From contig OY730440.1 of assembly GCA_963422655.1 (NCBI GenBank), forward strand, positions 2,425,442 to 2,489,441: a DNA stretch of 64,000 bases, given 5' to 3'. Of this stretch, positions 9,899 through 46,197 are shown piece by piece. The notes under the pieces were generated by a model that was not told where the DNA came from, ran no database searches, and saw only the letters and a list, made by a program, of their open reading frames with translations. Position 1 is the first letter of the stretch; each line of letters starts with the position of its first letter. The DNA comes from Acidimicrobiales bacterium. GTDB taxonomy: Bacteria; Actinomycetota; Acidimicrobiia; Acidimicrobiales; Aldehydirespiratoraceae. Both the position numbers and the translations under genes were made by a program.

Positions 9899-10645
9899 AT
9901 GCCTCGAATGGTGGCCTACCATCGGCCCACAACTATCGAAGACGCCATCGGCTTGTTGAGTGAACCCGACCGGGTGGTCTTGGCCGGTGGCACCATGCTG
10001 AACGCTGACCGGGAGCCCTCCGATCTCGAAGCCGTGGATATCCAGGCCCTGAGGCTGGACCGGATCGAAGCCGACGATACCGGCCGGGTCCGGTTGGGGG
10101 CCATGGTCACCCTCGACGAGATATCCCGGTCCGAATCGATACCGGCCCGGATGCGCCATGTGGCTCGGGCCGAGGCGCCCTCGACGCTGCGAACCCTGGC
10201 CACCGTGGGCGGTCTGGTGGCCCGACGCCAAGCCGACAGCGTGTTGCTGGCCGCCCTGCTGGCTCACCGGGGCCGGGTCGCTCTGGCCGGCGGGGGCGGT
10301 GCCGACGACTTGGAACTGGGGGAGTTGCTGGCCGCAGAAATGCCGGCCGGAGCGCTGATCACGGCGGTGACCATCGACCCGGACGGTGCTGTCGCCACCG
10401 CCGGTACCGGCCGGACCCCGGCCGATGTACCCATCGTGGCCGCCTACGGGCGTAGGGTCGGCGGTGCCGTTACCGTAACCCTCACCGGCGTGGCTGGTGT
10501 CCCGGTCAGGGCCGACGAGTCGGACCCGGTGGCGGGGCTGGCCCCCGACGGCGACTTCCGGGGCTCGTCCGAATACCGACTGATGTTGGCCGGTGTCCTC
10601 ACCCGACGAGTGGTGGCGGATTTGGCCAGGGAAGGGGTGGGCTGA
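9899..10645 (+). CDS. FAD-binding subunit of a xanthine dehydrogenase/CO dehydrogenase-family molybdenum hydroxylase (CoxM/XdhB-like)
   Basis: LAGGTMLN FAD motif, LATVGG, and C-terminal FRGSSEYRLMLAGVLTRR (CO_deh_flav_C-like). Confidence 0.85.
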   Translation: MPRMVAYHRPTTIEDAIGLLSEPDRVVLAGGTMLNADREPSDLEAVDIQALRLDRIEADDTGRVRLGAMVTLDEISRSESIPARMRHVARAEAPSTLRTLATVGGLVARRQADSVLLAALLAHRGRVALAGGGGADDLELGELLAAEMPAGALITAVTIDPDGAVATAGTGRTPADVPIVAAYGRRVGGAVTVTLTGVAGVPVRADESDPVAGLAPDGDFRGSSEYRLMLAGVLTRRVVADLAREGVG

Positions 10646-29102: not shown

Positions 29103-30277
29103 CGCTGGAGGCGTGGTCGACGGTGATCGGGCAGCCCGATGCCGTTCGTCGCCTGTCCCAATTCGTGGGCTCCCCTGTGCATGCCTACCTCTTCGTGGGG
29201 CCCCGCGGTTCGGGCAAGCGAACCGCGGCCGCTGTCTTCGCGGGGGAGCTCCTGGCTGCCGTCGACGGCGACCGGGCCGGACTGCATCGAAGGCGAGCCG
29301 CCCGCGAGGAGCATCCCGACGTGTTGATTCTCAAACCCATCAGCAATCAACTCCGGGCCGAAGAAGCTGAGCGGGTCATCGTCGAGGCCAGCCGATCACC
29401 GGTGGAGACCAGTCGCAAGGTGCTCGTCATCGACCGGTTCCATACTGCTACGCCGGAAGCAGCCGGGGCTCTACTGAAGACAGTCGAGGAACCCGTCGCC
29501 AGCACGATTTTCATCGTGCTGGTCGAAGAAGTCCTGCCCGAGCACGCAACGATCGCTTCTCGTTGCACCCGGGTGGACTTCCATGCCGTGGCCGATGAGG
29601 TAGTGGCGGCTGCGCTGGAAGCCGAGGGCCTGTTGGCGGGGCCGAGCGCCAAGGCGGTGGCGGCGGCAGCCGTCGGCAACCTCGACCGGGCCCGGGTCCT
29701 GGCCACCGACGATCGGGTCGTGGACCGTCACGAAGCCTGGTGGTCGATTCCCGAGAAACTCGACGGCACCGGTGCCGTCGTGGCCGTTCTCACCGAGAAG
29801 GTACGCGGCCTCATTACCGAAGCCCTCGAACCTCTGGCTGTTCGCCACCGGGCCGAGCTGGCCCAGCTCGACCAGCCCGAGGAACACCGCGGCACCGTCG
29901 GGTCGGGCCGCAGCCACGTAGAGGTTCGCCATCGTCGCGAGCGGCGCCAATTCCGCACCGATGAGCTGCGTTTCGGCCTGGCCACGCTGGTGTCGCGTTA
30001 CCGGGCCGAACTCGACTCGGCCACGTTCGATTCCGGCGTGCTGCGAGCCATCGACCGGGTGCGGCGCACTTACCAGTCTCTGACCCGCAATCCCAATGAA
30101 GCCCTGGCCCTTCAGAGTCTCCTGCTCGATCTGCCCGGGCTGGCACCGACCGATCCGCCGGCCGCGACAGGAGAAACCGGTGGAAGCGCCGGATCCGAGC
30201 CGGTACCTTCGTTGTCGGCGTCGCCGTCGCGACCCCGAAGCCCGAATAGCTCAGCCGGTAGAGCGACGCTCTCGTAA
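29099..30277 (+). CDS. holB: DNA polymerase III subunit delta-prime
   Basis: HAYLFVGPRGSGKRTAA. Position after tmk. The low-complexity Pro/Ser tail runs into the tRNA gene. Confidence 0.85.
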   Translation: MTLEAWSTVIGQPDAVRRLSQFVGSPVHAYLFVGPRGSGKRTAAAVFAGELLAAVDGDRAGLHRRRAAREEHPDVLILKPISNQLRAEEAERVIVEASRSPVETSRKVLVIDRFHTATPEAAGALLKTVEEPVASTIFIVLVEEVLPEHATIASRCTRVDFHAVADEVVAAALEAEGLLAGPSAKAVAAAAVGNLDRARVLATDDRVVDRHEAWWSIPEKLDGTGAVVAVLTEKVRGLITEALEPLAVRHRAELAQLDQPEEHRGTVGSGRSHVEVRHRRERRQFRTDELRFGLATLVSRYRAELDSATFDSGVLRAIDRVRRTYQSLTRNPNEALALQSLLLDLPGLAPTDPPAATGETGGSAGSEPVPSLSASPSRPRSPNSSAGRATLS

Positions 30278-30312
30278 AGCGTAGGTCAGGGGTTCGAATC
30301 CCCTTTCGGGCT
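30240..30312 (+). tRNA. tRNA-Thr (anticodon CGU)
   Basis: Manual cloverleaf: acceptor gcccgaa/ttcgggc, D arm gctc-agccggta-gagc, anticodon arm acgct-ctCGTaa-agcgt, T arm agggg-ttcgaat-cccct. 73 nt, followed by an encoded CCA. Confidence 0.9.
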
Positions 30313-30341
30313 CCAGCCAACTCTGGGGTTGGGAGCATATT

Positions 30342-38500: not shown

Positions 38501-38521
38501 CCCGGTTCTGCCCAAACCGGG
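38501..38521 (+). terminator. Weak candidate hairpin after lysS (cccggtt-N7-aaccggg), no U-tract
   Basis: 7-bp perfect stem read directly. No T run follows. Confidence 0.25.
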
Positions 38522-38525
38522 CACC

Positions 38526-38681
38526 ATGGAATCCGTTCGCCTGCCGCGGTTCGATCTCACCGACCCGCCTCTGGTAACGGTATCGGTGGGTGGCCCGGGG
38601 GAGTTGAGCCACGACGACATGGCGGCCGACACCGAGCGGATAAAGGCCGCCATCATGACCGAGCTGCCGGCCGAGGCTTGA
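38526..38681 (+). CDS. Hypothetical small protein (51 aa)
   Basis: Below the ORF-track cutoff. MESVRLPRFDLTDPPLVTVSVGGPGELSHDDMAADTERIKAAIMTELPAEA. GC-rich third positions. No family recognised. Confidence 0.3.
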   Translation: MESVRLPRFDLTDPPLVTVSVGGPGELSHDDMAADTERIKAAIMTELPAEA

Positions 38682-38721
38682 TGCCGACGGTCGCGGTCAC
38701 CACCTCGGCGTCGGGTTCGAT

Positions 38722-39750
38722 TCAGGTACGAGGAGCGGCGGCTCGCTCGATGAGATGGGTGGCGGCGGCTCTCAACGCGGCCGCGGCCGCAGTGTCGGGT
38801 AGAGCGGTCAGCGCGGCCCGGGATTTGTCCGCCCACCTCCGGGCCACGTCGAGAGCTTCGTCCACACCGGTGGTGGTCATGACGAGCCGACGGGCCCGCT
38901 GATTTGTGGCGGTGTCGATGGGTGCGCCGAGGATATGGCGCAGCTCATCGCCCGCGACCGGGTCGGCCAAGGCCCGTATCACCGGCAGCGTGTAGATGCC
39001 GGCGCTCAGGTCGTTGCCGGCCGGTTTGCCCAGGTCTTCGTTGGTGGCCACGACGTCCAAGATGTCGTCGACGATCTGGAAGGCCATGCCGTAGGCCCTG
39101 CCGAACTCGGTGAGAGTCTCGACGGTGGCCCGGGGCAGTTGGGCCACCACCGCCCCGATCCGACACGACGTAGCCAGCAGGGCCGCGGTCTTGCCCGCGA
39201 TGGAACGCTGGTAGAGCTCGGCGCTGCGGTCGATCTCGAAGGCGCTCTCGGCCTCGAGGATCTGACCCTGGCAGAGCTCGGTGATGGTGGTGGCCAGCAG
39301 GCCGGCCACCTCGTTGTTCAACGATGCCGCTATCTCCGAGGCCCGGCCCAGCAAGTAGTCACCGGCCAGGATGGCCCGAAGATTGCCCCACTTGGCGTTC
39401 ACGCTGGGCACCGACCGCCGGGTCACTGCCTCGTCCATGACGTCGTCGTGATACAACGACCCCAGGTGTACGAGCTCCACGGCCACGCCGCCCTGCACAG
39501 CTTCGGAGCTGATCGGGGCCCCGTCGGTGTCTGTGACCATGGAGGAAGCCAGGCAGAAGCCGGGCCGCACCCGCTTGCCTCCTGCGGCGATCAGGTGGCC
39601 GGCGATCTCGGTCATGAGCGGTTCGGTGGCCTCGACCGCGGCGGCCAGCCCGGTCTCGACCCGGGCCAACCCACCGGCCATGAGCTCCAGGATTGTCGGC
39701 GACGGCTCCGCAGGCACGATCCCGAGACTAATGGGAACGGCTCCGGTCAC
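38722..39750 (-). CDS. Polyprenyl diphosphate synthase (trans-isoprenyl diphosphate synthase family)
   Basis: First DDxxD in LYHDDVMDEA, second in FQIVDDILD. Confidence 0.9.
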   Translation of the reverse strand: MTGAVPISLGIVPAEPSPTILELMAGGLARVETGLAAAVEATEPLMTEIAGHLIAAGGKRVRPGFCLASSMVTDTDGAPISSEAVQGGVAVELVHLGSLYHDDVMDEAVTRRSVPSVNAKWGNLRAILAGDYLLGRASEIAASLNNEVAGLLATTITELCQGQILEAESAFEIDRSAELYQRSIAGKTAALLATSCRIGAVVAQLPRATVETLTEFGRAYGMAFQIVDDILDVVATNEDLGKPAGNDLSAGIYTLPVIRALADPVAGDELRHILGAPIDTATNQRARRLVMTTTGVDEALDVARRWADKSRAALTALPDTAAAAALRAAATHLIERAAAPRT

Positions 39751-39920
39751 AAGACCCCGGTATACACTGGCACTGTTTCTCAGTCCCGATGCCTTTCCAT
39801 TATGCGGAGGAATGACCGATGTTCGAGCGGTTCACCGACAGGGCTCGCCGCGTGGTGGTGCTGGCGCAGGAGGAAGCGCGCCTGCTTCGCCACAACTACA
39901 TAGGCACCGAGCACATCCTT
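39747..39920 (+). repeat. Copy A of a dispersed ~173-bp repeat: clpC promoter/leader plus codons 1-34
   Basis: Aligns with 43964-44135 with about 20 differences including one 2-nt indel (hand alignment). Confidence 0.9.
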
Positions 39921-42359
39921 TTGGGTCTCATCCACGAGGGTGAGGGGGTGGCGGCCAAAGCGATGGAGTCACTGGGGATCAGTCTCGAGGTGGTGCGGAG
40001 CCAGGTCGAGGAGATCATCGGCCCGGGTGGCAGCTCTCCGAGTGGGCACATCCCCTTCACCCCTCGGGCCAAGAAAGTGCTGGAGCTGAGCTTGCGAGAG
40101 GCTCTCCAGCTCGGACACAACTATATAGGCACCGAGCACATCCTTTTGGGTCTCATCCGTGAGGGCGACGGGGTGGCGGCCCAGGTTCTGGTCAAGCTGA
40201 GCGCCGACCTGTCCGGGGTGCGCGAGCAGGTCATCAAGCTCCTGTCCGGTCACGGTTACGGGCCGGGTCCGAGCGGTGAGAGGGCCGGTGCCACCGCGGG
40301 AAGATCGGGGGGCGACTCGCCCTCGGGTTCGATGGTGCTCGACCAGTTCGGACGCAACCTCACCAAGATGGCGCGGGACAATGCGCTCGATCCCGTCATC
40401 GGACGGAGCCGTGAGGCGGAACGGGTCATGCAGATCCTGAGCCGCCGGACCAAGAACAACCCGGTACTGGTGGGTGAGCCCGGAGTGGGAAAAACCGCCA
40501 TAGTCGAGGGTCTGGCCCAGTCCATCGTGGCTGACGACGTGCCCGAGACGTTGCGCGATTTCCAGCTCTATACGCTCGATCTCGGCGCTCTGGTGGCCGG
40601 CAGCCGTTACCGGGGTGATTTCGAGGAGCGCCTCAAGAAGGTGCTCAAAGAGATCAAGGATCGCCGCAACATCATCTTGTTCATCGACGAGATCCACACC
40701 TTGGTCGGCGCGGGAGCGGCCGAGGGCGCCATCGACGCGGCCTCGATCCTCAAACCGATGCTGGCCCGCGGCGAGTTGCAGACCATAGGCGCCACCACCC
40801 TGGACGAGTACCGCAAGCACTTGGAGAAGGACGCGGCTCTGGAGCGGCGGTTTCAGAAGGTCGTGGTCGACGAGCCGACCGTGCCTCACACCATCGAAAT
40901 CCTCAAGGGCTTGCGGGAGCGGTACGAGTCCCACCACCGGGTCACGATCACCGATCAGGCCTTGGTGGCCGCAGCCAACCTGGCCGATCGCTACATCTCG
41001 GATCGTCACCTGCCCGACAAAGCCATCGACCTGATCGACGAGGCCGGCTCACGTCTGCGGATCAAACGGATGGACACCCCCACCGACCACAAGGAGCTCG
41101 AAGCTGAGCTGGCCAGCGTGGTGGCCCGCAAGAAGACGGCGGTGGACGCTCAGCAATTCGAGGAGGCCGGGAACCTGCGTGACAAGGAGAAAGATCTCTT
41201 GGCCCGCCGGAAGGTGCTGGAGCGCGAGGCCAAGTCGTCGGGCGTGGATCTCTTCGACGAAGTCGACGAGGAGGCGATCGCCGAGGTGTTGTCGCTGTGG
41301 ACCGGCATCCCGGTCTATAAGCTCACCGAGGAGGAGACGCAGAAGCTTCTACGCATGGAGGATGAGCTGCACAAGCGGGTCATCGGCCAGCAGGACGCCA
41401 TAACTGCGGTCTCCCAAGCCATACGCCGAACCCGGGCCGGGCTCAAGGATCCGAAACGGCCCAGCGGCTCGTTCATCTTCCTGGGCCCCTCGGGGGTGGG
41501 CAAGACAGAGCTGGCCAAGACCCTGGCCGCGTTCTTGTTCGGTGACGAGGATGCTCTCATCCATCTCGACATGTCGGAGTACATGGAGAAGTACACAGTG
41601 AGCCGGCTCATCGGCTCGCCGCCGGGTTATGTCGGTTACGAGGAGGGCGGTCAGCTCACCGAGCAGGTGCGGCGCAAGCCCTTCTCCATCGTGTTGTTCG
41701 ACGAGATCGAAAAGGCCCACACCGATGTCTTCAACACCTTGTTGCAGATCCTCGAGGAGGGCAGACTCACCGACAGCCAGGGCCGCACCGTCGACTTTCG
41801 CAACACCGTCGTCATCATGACGTCCAACCTCGGAACCGCCGATCTACGTAAGGCCAATCTGGGGTTCACCAGGGTTGACGCCTCTGTCACCTACGAGCGG
41901 ATGAAGGAGAAGGTGCAGGATGCGCTCAAGCAGCACTTCCGGCCCGAGTTCCTGAATCGCATCGACGACGTGATCGTGTTCCATGAACTGACCCGGCCCG
42001 AAGTCCGCCAGATCGTCGAACTGATGATCGTGCGCACTGTCGACCAGCTCGCCGGTCAAGGCATTGGCTTGGAGCTCACCGACGCGGCCAAGGATTTTCT
42101 GGCCAGCGAGGGTTACGACCCCACGCTGGGAGCTCGACCTCTGCGACGGTCCATCCAGAGACTGGTGGAGGACGCGCTGTCGGAGCGGCTCCTACAAAAG
42201 GAGTTCCGGGCCGGCGAGATCGTCATCGTCGATGTCGAACCCTCCGATGGAGACGCCTCCGACCGTTCCATAGTGTTCCGAGCCATCGAAGGCTTCGAAC
42301 CGGCCCAACCGGAGCTGGAGACAGTCGGTGGCGGGGCTGGCGATGGCGGCCACTTTTGA
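39819..42359 (+). CDS. clpC: ATP-dependent Clp protease ATP-binding subunit ClpC
   Basis: Two Clp-R repeats ([11 protein letters not shown] twice), Walker A GEPGVGKT and [11 protein letters not shown]-like linker. Confidence 0.97.
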
Positions 42360-42385
42360 GCTCGGCTCGTAGTTCGGGCTCCTCG

Positions 42386-43915
42386 ATGAGTCCACTTCGG
42401 GTGCGTTGGCTCCGCCTCCTCTTGGTGGCGATTGCCGTTGTCGTGACGGCATCGGCCTGCCGTATCGACGCCACCGTGGAGGTGGTCGCCACCGAACGGG
42501 GAACGGGCACGGTGTCGGTGCGGGTCGTGGCCGACGGTGAAGCGGTGAGGTTGACTCCGGATCTACCCGGCAATCTCCGCCTCGACGACGTGAGAGATGC
42601 CGGCTGGACAGTGGTCGGGCCTGAGTCCACGGGTGGCGGCGGCATGGTGGTGGAGGCTTCCAAAGGGTTCGACTCCCCCGAGCAGCTTCCCGAGATCCTG
42701 GCCGAGCTGGCCGGCGAGGGCGTCTTCGAGGACATCGAGCTCACCCAGAGTCATACAGAGGCCGACTTCTCGTTCTCGTTCAGTGATCCGCTGACGACGA
42801 CGAGGACCGACTACGACCTGACCGCTCGCATCGTCCCGCCGTCGGATCCGAGGGTCTTCAGTGATGATTTGCTGGCTGAGATCCTCGACGGACACCTTTT
42901 CGGCCGCCCGGAGCTGGTCGACGAGGCGGGCGGGCCGGTCGATCCTGATTCGTCGCTGGGGATGGTGTTTACGGTCACCCTGCCCTACGATGTCGCCTCC
43001 GACACCGCGGCCGAGATCGACGGGAACACGGCCGAATGGAGGTTCTCCTTCGGCGACGACGCCTTCGACGTGGACGCCTCCAGCATGATCGAGGACTCCG
43101 CTCCCCGGATGTGGCTGGCTCTGGTGGTGCTCGCCATTGTCGCTTCGGTACTGGTGGTGTTGTTCCAACTTCTCTGGTGGATCTTCTCCATCGTGCGCAC
43201 ACCCAAAGGCCGCCGTCGGCTGGCTACCCGGCGGCGCCGACGGAGGCGGGCCGCAGCTCGCAGCACCGATACCGGCCATTCCCGCCGTCGGCTCCTCCGC
43301 TTGCTGGTGGTGGATGTGCACGGAGTGGTTGTGCGCCCCACCGATCCACTGGAGGGGTTGTTGTTGCCGATCGTCCGAGCCGAGCTCCCCGACATCGATC
43401 CTGAGATGGTCCGGGATCGCCATCGCAAGCTCCTGCTGGGCCGGCTGACCCCCGAGGAGTTCTGGAGTGATCTGGGGCTGGGGCCGATCTCCGACGAGAT
43501 CGAGACCCGATATCTGTCGTCGTACCGGCTCGTCCCGGGCCTGCATACGTTCCTGGACCGCATGCGGGATCGACAGCTTCCGGTAGCGGTGATCGGTAAC
43601 CAGCCTCGGCACTGGGGGGAGCGACTGCGGCGCATGGCGGCGCTGGAGGACACGGTGGCGTCATGGCTGGTCAGCGGCGACGTCGGGGCGACCCTGCCCG
43701 AATCCTCGCTGTTCGAGGCGACCCGCCGGGTGATGTCGGTCGACACGTACGACTGCCTGTACCTGTCGAGTGTCCCCGATAATCTCGATGCCGCCGCCGA
43801 GCTGGGCTTGGCCACGGCCTACTTCGCGGCCAGTCCAGCCGACGCGATCGAAACGTCTCATACCATGGTTCGGGGTTTCAATGACATCTTGAAGGGTCGG
43901 GCCGGGAGCACCTGA
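42386..43915 (+). CDS. Membrane-anchored lipoprotein with extracytoplasmic domain, one TM helix, an Arg-rich linker and a C-terminal degenerate HAD-like domain
   Basis: Signal/lipobox MSPLRVRWLRLLLVAIAVVVTASAC. TM WLALVVLAIVASVLVVLFQLLWWIF, then RRRLATRRRRRRRAAAR. HAD motif I reads LLVVDVHGVV (DxH rather than DxD). The alternative TTG 42356 overlaps the clpC stop. Confidence 0.65.
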   Translation: MSPLRVRWLRLLLVAIAVVVTASACRIDATVEVVATERGTGTVSVRVVADGEAVRLTPDLPGNLRLDDVRDAGWTVVGPESTGGGGMVVEASKGFDSPEQLPEILAELAGEGVFEDIELTQSHTEADFSFSFSDPLTTTRTDYDLTARIVPPSDPRVFSDDLLAEILDGHLFGRPELVDEAGGPVDPDSSLGMVFTVTLPYDVASDTAAEIDGNTAEWRFSFGDDAFDVDASSMIEDSAPRMWLALVVLAIVASVLVVLFQLLWWIFSIVRTPKGRRRLATRRRRRRRAAARSTDTGHSRRRLLRLLVVDVHGVVVRPTDPLEGLLLPIVRAELPDIDPEMVRDRHRKLLLGRLTPEEFWSDLGLGPISDEIETRYLSSYRLVPGLHTFLDRMRDRQLPVAVIGNQPRHWGERLRRMAALEDTVASWLVSGDVGATLPESSLFEATRRVMSVDTYDCLYLSSVPDNLDAAAELGLATAYFAASPADAIETSHTMVRGFNDILKGRAGST

Positions 43916-43963
43916 GCCCTTCGCCCTCCCGGCCCAGCCGGTTGTCACCGGCCACGCCACCAG

Positions 43964-44135
43964 TCACAGGACCCCGGTACATTGGCGCCGCTTCTCAGTC
44001 CCGATGCCTGACCCATATTCGGAGGAATGGCCGATGTTCGAGCGGTTCGACGACAGGGCTCGTCGGGTGTTGGTGCTGGCGCAGGAAGAGGCCCGCCTAC
44101 TTCGCCACGACTACATAGGCACCGAGCACATCCTT
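43964..44135 (+). repeat. Copy B of the clpC leader/5-prime-codon repeat, fused to ispDF
   Basis: See 39747-39920. It includes the same ggagga RBS (44021-44026) and ATG (44034). Confidence 0.9.
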
Positions 44136-45308
44136 GGTGTATGGGTGATCGTCGTGGCGGCGGGGTCCGGGTCGCGTTTCGGTGCTCGCAAGCAGTTCCT
44201 CGATCTCAGCGGACGCTCGGTGATCGACCGGGCTGTGGCCGAAGCGGCTCGCCATGCCGAGGGAGTAGTGGTCGTCCTGCCCGGTGACCGGGCCGGTGCG
44301 GGTCTCGGTGGCCGCTCCCCGACCGCGACCCCACCCAGGGCCGTTCGGGTGGTGACTGGAGGCTCGTCCCGGTCGGACTCGGTCCGCCGGGGGTTGGCCG
44401 CGGTGCCTCCCGACGCCGAGGTCGTGGTGGTTCACGACGGTGCCCGCCCTCTGGCCTCGGCCGAGCTGTACCGGCGGGTGGTCGCCGCCGTGCGGGAGGG
44501 TGCTGACGGGGCAGTACCGGTGGTGGAGGTGACCGACACCGTGCGTCGGCACGGCGCCGCTTTCGATCGTCGGGGGCTGGTTGCGGTCCAGACCCCTCAG
44601 GGGTTCCGGGCCGGCGTGCTGCGAGCCGCCCTGGCCGAGGGGGGCGAGGCCACCGACGATGCCACCCTGGTCGAGGCGGCCGGAGCCACCGTGGTCGAGG
44701 TGGAAGGCGACCGCGGGAATCTCAAGATCACCACCCCTGAGGATCTGACCATGGCGGCAGCCCTGCTGGGTGAAGCGGACGAACCGTCGGGACTGCGGGT
44801 GGGGCACGGATTCGATGTGCATCGTTACAGCGACGACCCCGACCGGGTCTTGGTGCTGGGCGGGGTGAGGTTCGAGGGAGAGCGAGGCCTGGCCGGTCAC
44901 TCCGATGCCGACGTGGTGGCTCACGCTTGTATCGAAGCACTTCTGGGGGCGGCCGGTCTCGGTGACATCGGGTCCATGTTTCCCGACACCGATCCCGCCC
45001 TGGCCGGAGCCGACAGCATCGATCTGCTGCTCAGGACGGCTACGGCCCTGCGGGAGACGGGTTGGAGCCCTGTGAACGTGGATTGCTCCGTCGTTCTCGA
45101 CGCCCCGGTTGTGAGGCCGCACGTGTCGGCCATGCAGCGATGTCTCGGGGATGCCGCTGGGGCTGCGGTCACGGTGTCGGGACGCAGGCCCGAGGGCGTC
45201 GGTGCGCTGGGCCGGGGTGAGGGAGTGGCGGCCTGGGCGGTGGCTCTGGTAGCTCGTCGGCCTCGGTGGCGGCAGCGAGCGACGACCGGTCCCGGTTCTG
45301 GGCGCTAG
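44034..45308 (+). CDS. ispDF: Bifunctional 2-C-methyl-D-erythritol 4-phosphate cytidylyltransferase / MEcPP synthase (IspDF) carrying a 34-aa ClpC-derived N-terminal extension
   Basis: IspD AAGSGSRFG..VHDGARP..TPQGF. IspF GHGFDVH..GHSDADVVAHA. N-terminus [34 protein letters not shown]. The ancestral-type start is probably GTG 44145 (VIVVAAGSG). ATG 44004 is also in frame. Confidence 0.9.
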   Translation: MFERFDDRARRVLVLAQEEARLLRHDYIGTEHILGVWVIVVAAGSGSRFGARKQFLDLSGRSVIDRAVAEAARHAEGVVVVLPGDRAGAGLGGRSPTATPPRAVRVVTGGSSRSDSVRRGLAAVPPDAEVVVVHDGARPLASAELYRRVVAAVREGADGAVPVVEVTDTVRRHGAAFDRRGLVAVQTPQGFRAGVLRAALAEGGEATDDATLVEAAGATVVEVEGDRGNLKITTPEDLTMAAALLGEADEPSGLRVGHGFDVHRYSDDPDRVLVLGGVRFEGERGLAGHSDADVVAHACIEALLGAAGLGDIGSMFPDTDPALAGADSIDLLLRTATALRETGWSPVNVDCSVVLDAPVVRPHVSAMQRCLGDAAGAAVTVSGRRPEGVGALGRGEGVAAWAVALVARRPRWRQRATTGPGSGR

Positions 45309-45312
45309 CCGG

Positions 45313-46125
45313 GTGAGCGGCGGTCGGTCGGTTCTGGGCGGTGAACAGGTAGAAGGGCGACAGGCCGTACGTGAACTGCTGCGAGCTCGATCTCGCCGAA
45401 CCTTGGAAGTGGTGCTGGCCCGCGGTTCGGAACCGGCTCCGGTGATCGATGAAATTCTGGCTTCGGCCCGAGCCCGGCAGGTTCCGGTCCTCGAGGTGGG
45501 TCGGGCCGAGCTCGACTCGATGGCCCGCACCGGCTCGACCCAGGGTGTGCTGGCCCGGGCCGAGCCACTGACCGGAGTCGACCTCGGCGATCTGGCCCGC
45601 CCCGATCCGAACGACCCGGCCGGTGCGGCGCCGTTCCTGCTCGCTCTCGACGGGATCACCGACCCGGGCAATCTCGGGGCCATTCTTCGTATCGCCGAAG
45701 GGGCGGGTGTGACCGGAATAGTGTTACCACGGCACCGGGCCGTCAGGGTCACGCCGACGGTTACCAAGGCGGCCGCGGGAGCCGTCGAGCACATGGCCGT
45801 GGCCTTGGTACCGGGTCTGCCCGCGGCCCTGAGGAAGCTGAGTGCGGCCGGGGTGTGGACGATAGGGCTCGACCCTGCCGGCCCCACTCCCATTCACGAT
45901 CTGACGGTGGCTTGCGAGCCGCTGGTGCTGGTACTGGGATCAGAAGGAGTCGGCCTGTCCCGGCTGGTGGCCGAGCGGTGCGACGTGCTGGCGTCGATCC
46001 CGCTGCGGGGCCGACTGGCTTCGCTCAACGTCGCCGCGGCCGGGGCGGTGGCCTGTTTCGAGATCACTCGCTGCCGGACCGGCTTCGACCCCGGTTCGAG
46101 CTCCAGGCCGGCTCCGGGGTCTTGA
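45313..46125 (+). CDS. TrmH/SpoU-family RNA 2-prime-O-methyltransferase (RlmB-like)
   Basis: GITDPGNLGAILR, LVLGSEGVGLS, SLNVAAAGAV. Confidence 0.85.
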   Translation: MSGGRSVLGGEQVEGRQAVRELLRARSRRTLEVVLARGSEPAPVIDEILASARARQVPVLEVGRAELDSMARTGSTQGVLARAEPLTGVDLGDLARPDPNDPAGAAPFLLALDGITDPGNLGAILRIAEGAGVTGIVLPRHRAVRVTPTVTKAAAGAVEHMAVALVPGLPAALRKLSAAGVWTIGLDPAGPTPIHDLTVACEPLVLVLGSEGVGLSRLVAERCDVLASIPLRGRLASLNVAAAGAVACFEITRCRTGFDPGSSSRPAPGS

Positions 46126-46197
46126 GCCCGAGACAGGATTCGAACCTGCGACCTGCTGTTTACAAGACAGCTGCTCTACCGCCTGAGCTACTCGGGC
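46125..46197 (-). tRNA. tRNA-Thr (anticodon UGU)
   Basis: Manual cloverleaf on the minus strand: gcccgag/ctcgggc acceptor, gctc-aggcggta-gagc, gctgt-ctTGTaa-acagc, gcagg-ttcgaat-cctgt. 73 nt, no encoded CCA. Its 3-prime base is shared with the last base of the convergent methyltransferase stop codon (46123-46125). Confidence 0.9.

Follow-up and report, generated by a model that had tools for sequence, protein, structure and literature searches.

A diverged copy of the clpC 5' end fused in frame to ispDF: probable capture of start-site and promoter signals in an Acidimicrobiales bacterium

The genes clpC (which encodes a chaperone), X, ispDF and rlmB are located in this order on the plus strand of the window (the whole 64-kb stretch of DNA analysed here, from an uncultured member of the Acidimicrobiales), head to tail and with short gaps (Table 1). 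No terminator-like sites were detected in the gaps of this run, and the terminator scan of the window gave hits at chance level only. The start of gene X is uncertain, and is either GTG 42401, by analogy with the gene call in L081 (a contig of a second strain, described below), or ATG 42386. Two tRNA-Thr genes are present at 30240–30315 (+) and 46124–46197 (−), with the anticodons CGT and TGT. The gene at 46124–46197 directly follows the rlmB-like gene, is encoded on the other strand, and marks where the clpC-X-ispDF-rlmB run ends. On the other side, a polyprenyl synthetase gene (38722–39750, −), which also belongs to isoprenoid metabolism, is divergent from clpC (39819, +). The two start codons are 68 nt apart, and the duplicated segment described below begins nearly at the GTG start of the synthetase gene. 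About 210 nt (38509–38718), containing a 51-codon ORF (38526–38681, MESVRLPRFDL...), separate lysS from the 3' end of the synthetase gene; L081 is without them, and its two genes are 7 nt apart.

Table 1. Features of the clpC-X-ispDF-rlmB region (positions in the window)
Feature	Position	Strand	Evidence or remark
Source segment: clpC promoter core, 5' leader and codons 1–34	39746–39920	+	Alignment, repeat search
−10-like TACACT of clpC	39763–39768	+	Seen upstream of clpC in 13/18 related loci
SD of clpC, GGAGGA	39806–39811	+	ATG at 39819
Intact clpC gene	39819–42359	+	
Gene X, membrane protein with weak HAD-like C-terminal part	42401–43915	+	Syntenic in relatives
Spacer from X stop codon to left edge of copy, 47 nt	43916–43962	+	
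Copied non-coding part: −10-like box, leader and SD	43963–44033	+	Also in L081
Copied −10-like box, CCGGTACATT	43974–43983	+	
Copied SD, GGAGGA	44021–44026	+	
Copied clpC codons 1–34, N-terminal extension of IspDF	44034–44135	+	Codon alignment, Pfam
Strain-variable block, 84 nt, codons 7–34	44052–44135	+	blastn alignment break
Native ispDF body from conserved G-V-W/strand β1	44136–45308	+	Stop codon 45306–45308
SpoU/RlmB-type methyltransferase gene (rlmB-like)	45313–46125	+	

The ORF 44034–45308 is open from its ATG to the stop codon and encodes a protein of 424 residues, and the in-frame fusion of a clpC 5' copy to ispDF reported in the preliminary description is present. According to the Pfam search, the IspD domain (PF01128) covers residues 36–246 (model positions 1–220 of 221, E = 5.9e-51), and the IspF/YgbB domain (PF02542) covers residues 254–406 (model positions 1–154 of 155, E = 3.8e-49). 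Both full-length domains lie in one polypeptide, and the protein is a bifunctional IspD/IspF. The protein search detected 5608 homologues at E <= 1e-20, and the AlphaFold2 model shows a mean pLDDT of 87.9. The enzyme body and the IspD–IspF fusion are like those of the ordinary bifunctional IspDF of Acidimicrobiales relatives, whereas the protein owes its N-terminus, start codon and upstream signals to a foreign source, clpC. The linker between IspD and IspF is highly variable in the relatives P0003, P0013, P0017, P0020, P0027 and P0032, in which low-complexity or repeated insertions are observed, for example GERFGGEGG repeats and a duplicated ADLQMAxALL.

According to the MAFFT alignment, 43963–44135 is a diverged copy of 39746–39920 with 21 substitutions and one 2-nt indel (TA, which the clpC copy alone has). 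The repeat search detected 158 ungapped nt at 87% identity (39763–39920 against 43978–44135). The repeat claimed earlier, with about 20 differences including one 2-nt indel, was thus borne out; the segment pair is the same, but the left start is one base earlier than described (43963/39746 instead of 43964/39747). The upstream part shows 11 mismatches in 71 aligned nt (84.5% identity), and the coding part shows 10 differences in 102 nt (about 90% identity). The window contains two exact copies of the leader 18-mer TTCTCAGTCCCGATGCCT, where 0.06 would be expected. The repeat is real and far above chance. Nine codons differ between the copy and clpC, six of them synonymously and three non-synonymously (T6D, V13L and N26D), and the ATA codon at position 28 is retained; the recount agrees with the first tally. 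At the left edge of the copy, the similarity goes down to about 59% within 17 nt, and nothing upstream of about −17, where the −35 area lies, is included in the copy. A copy extending further to the left was considered and rejected, because the similarity decays and the X stop codon at 43915 sets the limit.

The ClpC-derived part of the protein ends at Leu34, and the native part begins at Gly35. The IspDF proteins of the relatives consist of a short variable peptide followed by the conserved G-V-W-(A/V)-(V/I)-V-AAGSG. Position 1 of the Pfam IspD model corresponds to residue 36, Trp37 is conserved in at least 90% of the 38-sequence alignment of relatives, and strand β1 is predicted at residues 36–41 by AlphaFold2. 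The join sits directly on the conserved IspD core (G-V-W, β1). Thus, GTG 44145 (Val38), which had been regarded as a plausible ancestral start, is within the conserved core and is no ancestral start; the relatives start about 15 codons before GVW.

The nearest graft-free relatives are L001 and L002, and their IspDF proteins show identities of 73% and 65%, respectively. Both loci have a native start of ispDF, and the layout is the X stop codon, 35–38 nt, a GGAGGG SD, ATG, 15 codons (MGDRG...) and GVW. No trace of this native SD, ATG and about 15 codons was found in the window, including the 47-nt spacer. The clpC-X order is syntenic in many relatives, and ispDF directly follows X in L001 and L002. 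In the more distant relatives L015 (7968–10025), L008, L016, L018 and L027, radA and a minus-strand Crp/Fnr-type regulator gene are located between X and ispDF; these two genes are missing from this position in the window, L081, L001 and L002. The preliminary description pointed out that carD, which normally precedes ispD in actinobacteria, is absent here. In none of the relatives examined is carD located upstream of ispDF (X, or radA and the Crp-like regulator, is found instead), so its absence is not specific to the window and has no bearing on the graft.

A single close relative, P0001, came out of the protein search; it is encoded by the contig L081 (ENA ERZ21742368). The protein of the window itself, P0121, falls into the 90% cluster of P0001, and gene callers put the start of both proteins at MFERF. 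L081 and the window are 98.4–99.0% identical over 21 kb. The blastn match is interrupted between 44051 and 44136 of the window, and between 10018 and 10070 of L081; the 84 nt of the strain-variable block are replaced in L081 by 51 nt (10019–10069). These 51 nt encode ClpC residues 143–157 plus VG, in frame. L081 has the identical ATG and MFERFD, including T6D, and the same copied leader. The ClpC residues 143–157 are a lineage-specific linker after the N-domain, and the counterpart in L001 is SGYSSASGSGPEKAG. As the ispDF segment of L081 differs from the clpC of L081 at 3 of 45 nt, it is no recent conversion from clpC. The ClpC segment of the window strain is no recent conversion either. Since each strain holds a ClpC piece that the other lacks, the ancestral graft would have reached at least clpC codon 157, and would have been cut back twice, independently and in frame. 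The leader of L081 (9931–10000) shows three differences from 43963–44033 in 71 nt, somewhat above the 1–1.6% observed genome-wide. The differences are CCCC versus CCC, T versus G, and GGAGGA versus GGAAGGA in the SD, and the two 1-nt indels could be long-read errors.

Of the 160 further loci retrieved, L081 alone has a ClpN fragment next to ispDF. The suggested comparison with ispD orthologues therefore gave a divided answer: the extension is found in L081, with a different ClpC segment, and is absent from the rest of these loci. A collection of 5.8 billion sequences was searched using a reconstructed ClpC(1–157)–IspD chimera as the query. Clp_N and IspD were found in one protein only in the P0001/P0121 cluster, and the full-length form of the graft (codons 1–157) was not found by this query. 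The copy-specific leader had no exact match in JGI metagenomes. The protein-based metagenome scan gave no relative of more than 75% identity, and none with a ClpN fragment beside ispDF.

The donor gene is intact in the same genome, and several states derived in the resident clpC are carried by the copy (R24, ATA28, CTT23, CTT34 and the species-specific linker). These shared derived states place the origin of the graft in this lineage after the split from L001/L002. According to the outgroup polarisation, most changes are on the branch of the copy, and a few map to the clpC branch, namely GAA19, a K-to-R change in the linker and, in the −10 region, the insertion of TA. The copy is thus an old duplicate of the resident clpC. 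Its divergence of 13%, against 1–1.6% between the strains, indicates that the graft arose long before the two strains separated.

The in-frame junction retains the start codon and the ribosome-binding site of the donor. The SD of ATG 44034 is −9.5 kcal/mol, equal to that of clpC, and is the best properly spaced one; the SD in L081 is −9.3 kcal/mol. ATG 44004, further upstream, lacks an SD, and in L081 it is not in frame. Weak SDs are common among the genes of this genome, so a gene can do without a strong one, which leaves some room for internal initiation.

Among the relatives compared, the only conserved element upstream of clpC is the box CCGRTACACT, and no −35 element is conserved. The copy of this box reads CCGGTACATT. 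Of the 18 Acidimicrobiales loci, 13 have TACACT, usually as part of CCGRTACACT, no more than 160 nt from the clpC start, while its background frequency is 0.03 per kb; the box lies 30–100 nt upstream of clpC (loci including L001, L002, L008, L015, L016, L018, L027, L045, L048 and L077). According to this conservation, CCGRTACACT is probably the clpC −10 element of Acidimicrobiales. Both strains retain the −10-like box in front of ispDF, with a single change from TACACT to TACATT that keeps the TAnnnT pattern. The σ70 consensus scan detected no promoter at the clpC locus or at the ispDF locus. The Rfam scan of 39600–44300 gave no match at E <= 1, and folding of the leader detected no structure above the shuffled controls in either copy (z = +0.7 to +1.3). 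A thermosensor was considered and rejected; pairing of UUUCUC with the SD is possible in the clpC leader, and is absent from the minimum-free-energy fold of the copy. The pattern CGCYNANRGCG, which we take to be a ClgR-operator-like core, was found in neither leader with one mismatch allowed, and with 175 matches in the window it is too degenerate to inform.

Co-regulation of ispDF with clpC through shared signals had been proposed. The promoter element and the SD are indeed retained in the copy. However, the clpC-X-ispDF-rlmB run looks like an operon, and hence ispDF was probably co-expressed with clpC before the graft arose. The role of the graft would be to raise expression from within the operon, and not to establish the link to clpC.

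We regard it as probable that the graft is a start-site capture, which probably included the promoter, and that the ClpC remnant is a dispensable spacer under trimming. In the ancestor, the 5' end of the own clpC would have been copied, starting about 17 nt before the −10 box and reaching at least as far as codon 157, at the end of the N-domain linker, and the copy would have been joined in frame to ispDF. The most likely route would be that clpC-X was duplicated in tandem and that the second copy then suffered an internal deletion. A duplicated unit from 39746 to 43962, with a period of 4215–4217 nt, would give the observed layout exactly. With the join, ispDF would have lost its native ribosome-binding site and ATG, along with about a dozen codons at the N-terminal end. 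A possible GCCGG(T/G)G similarity between the original clpC–ispD join and the ispD 5' ends of L001/L002 is suggestive at most. According to the anatomy and the conservation of the frame, IspDF would now be translated from the clpC-derived SD and ATG 44034. Besides read-through from clpC-X, the copied −10 element probably also drives transcription of the gene. The later deletion in the window lineage would have removed codon 35 through VG, keeping residues 1–34, and that in the L081 lineage would have removed codons 7–142, keeping residues 1–6 and 143–157. The leftover would be a linker with no ClpC-like function, shortened by in-frame deletions. No microhomology was found at either of the two deletion junctions. 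The two Clp_N repeats of clpC (39873–39956 and 40098–40181) have a 34-nt identical stretch in common (ATAGGCACCGAGCACATCCTTTTGGGTCTCATCC), and the deletion breakpoint of the window, after CTT of codon 34, falls within this stretch. An earlier recombination between repeat 1 and repeat 2 in the copy is conceivable from this position.

Capture of the translation start alone, with the copied −10 element inactive and ispDF transcribed solely as part of an operon from the original clpC promoter, is an unlikely alternative that still deserves attention. The head-to-tail genes with short gaps and no terminator-like site between them are consistent with it, as are the 35–38 nt between X and ispDF in L001/L002, the lack of sequence upstream of about −17 in the copy and the absence of any promoter scored by the σ70-type scan. 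It is opposed by the −10-like box, which is kept in both strains as TAnnnT and is the sole conserved promoter element of clpC in the relatives, where the −35 area is unconserved too. The copy might instead be an untranslated relic with an accidentally open upstream frame, and IspDF might initiate internally, for example at GTG 44145. This codon has GGTG 5 nt upstream (SD −5.4 kcal/mol), some IspD proteins start one residue before the conserved Trp (P0027), and the non-coding and coding parts have similar identities (84.5% and 90%). However, a start at 44145 drops Val36 and Trp37 and truncates β1. Furthermore, the frame, the ATG and the SD are kept in both strains despite the different deletions, and no stop codon is present in the 34 codons of the window or the 23 codons of L081. 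We therefore judge the relic improbable. The chance that both deletions are in frame is about 1/9, and the better case for translation is an anatomical one: the native start is gone, the frame is kept, and the SD and the ATG are intact. The possibility that clpC reads were mis-joined upstream of ispDF during assembly is next to negligible. Both assemblies are metagenome-derived, and the shorter C run and the extra A in the SD of L081 hint at long-read errors, but a sequence with 21 differences and an indel relative to clpC cannot be built from clpC reads, and the same diagnostic changes are present in two independent assemblies.

The ClpC-derived N-terminus might also be functional as a tag, a degron or a decoy, or as a remnant of a functional fusion between the N-domain and IspDF. 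The preliminary description had proposed a tag or decoy role of the ClpC helix, together with purifying selection on the copied peptide. The pairwise dN/dS is 0.18 over the 49 available codons, with p = 0.005 against full neutrality, MFERFD is present in both strains, and stand-alone homologues of the ClpC1 N-domain are known to act as sponges or sensors (ClpC2, PMC10030653). On the other hand, half of the pairwise divergence is on the strongly constrained clpC branch, so that the null with only the clpC side constrained is the proper one, and against this null p = 0.09. On the branch of the copy alone, 3–5 synonymous and 4 non-synonymous nucleotide changes are observed, which is not decisive. 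T6D, V13L and N26D are all located at residues invariant in 12 ClpC orthologues, so these invariant residues of the N-domain are not retained. Residues 7–34 are lost altogether in L081, and merely six residues (MFERFD) are common to the ClpC-derived N-termini of the two strains. The signal of purifying selection on the copied peptide is thus weak. The Clp_N match covers only residues 16–34 (model positions 1–19 of 53, one repeat, 22.3 bits), P0001 has no Clp_N match in Pfam, and a complete Clp_N domain, i.e. two repeats of about 53 positions in about 145 residues, is absent. With 19 of the 53 positions of one repeat, a folded N-domain is impossible, and AlphaFold2 predicts the extension as a lone helix at residues 4–27 with low confidence (pLDDT 53–75). 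In both strains the signals, the start codon and the frame have been retained, whereas the peptide has not; a tag or decoy is therefore unlikely, and we find a functional N-terminus of any of these kinds hardly credible. It is likewise very unlikely that the ancestral graft was a complete, translated ClpC N-domain with its linker, mostly under purifying selection, with a Clp-related regulatory role persisting in the short N-termini of today. The function of such a domain might have been to bind an adaptor, phosphoarginine or an antibiotic, or to serve the MEP-pathway enzyme as a stability tag linked to Clp.

Start-site capture, probably with promoter capture, has known counterparts. In the long-term experiment with E. 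coli, duplication is said to have led to the rnk–citT promoter capture described by Blount et al. in 2012. There as here, duplication sets the expression signals of one gene before a nearby gene. In the present case, however, the SD, the ATG and coding sequence are also captured, resulting in a chimeric protein, and the event is old and natural (13% divergence), with no laboratory selection. Context for promoter capture by duplication in experimental evolution is given in PMC4718724. Spontaneous and deletion-born gene fusions of bacteria (Kaul et al. 2026 preprint, PMC12803068), including the fadA–fwsR fusions in Pseudomonas fluorescens (bioRxiv 10.1101/091744), likewise join the 5' part of one gene in frame to the body of its neighbour, which obtains a new promoter and N-terminus. 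Here, in contrast, the donor clpC is intact because a duplicate was used, and the donor-derived peptide was later whittled down, unused. ClpC2 and stand-alone ClpC1 N-domain paralogues are described in actinobacteria (PMC10030653). In both cases, an actinobacterial genome would retain a partial clpC 5' duplicate as a separately expressed unit, but ClpC2 keeps a complete folded, ligand-binding N-domain-like module (PMC10030653), whereas one helix (window) or a linker stretch (L081) remains here, fused to an enzyme. As no complete N-domain is present, the graft is no ClpC2-like N-domain paralogue. It belongs with the promoter-capture duplications and the duplication- or deletion-born gene fusions.

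The graft reveals no new mechanism and no new protein function. What it adds above all is a snapshot of in-frame trimming in two strains, along with the −10 motif of clpC. In annotation, MFERF... can be accepted as the N-terminus of this IspDF, since it is genuine sequence and no mis-call, and labelling the protein as a Clp_N domain protein is unwarranted. The comparison also points to the conserved −10-like motif CCGRTACACT upstream of clpC in Acidimicrobiales. The locus is a clean natural example in which the translation start, and probably the promoter, of an essential gene would have given way to signals copied from clpC, a highly expressed stress gene nearby. The coding leftover would since have been trimmed in frame, and two strains of one species catch different stages of this trimming.
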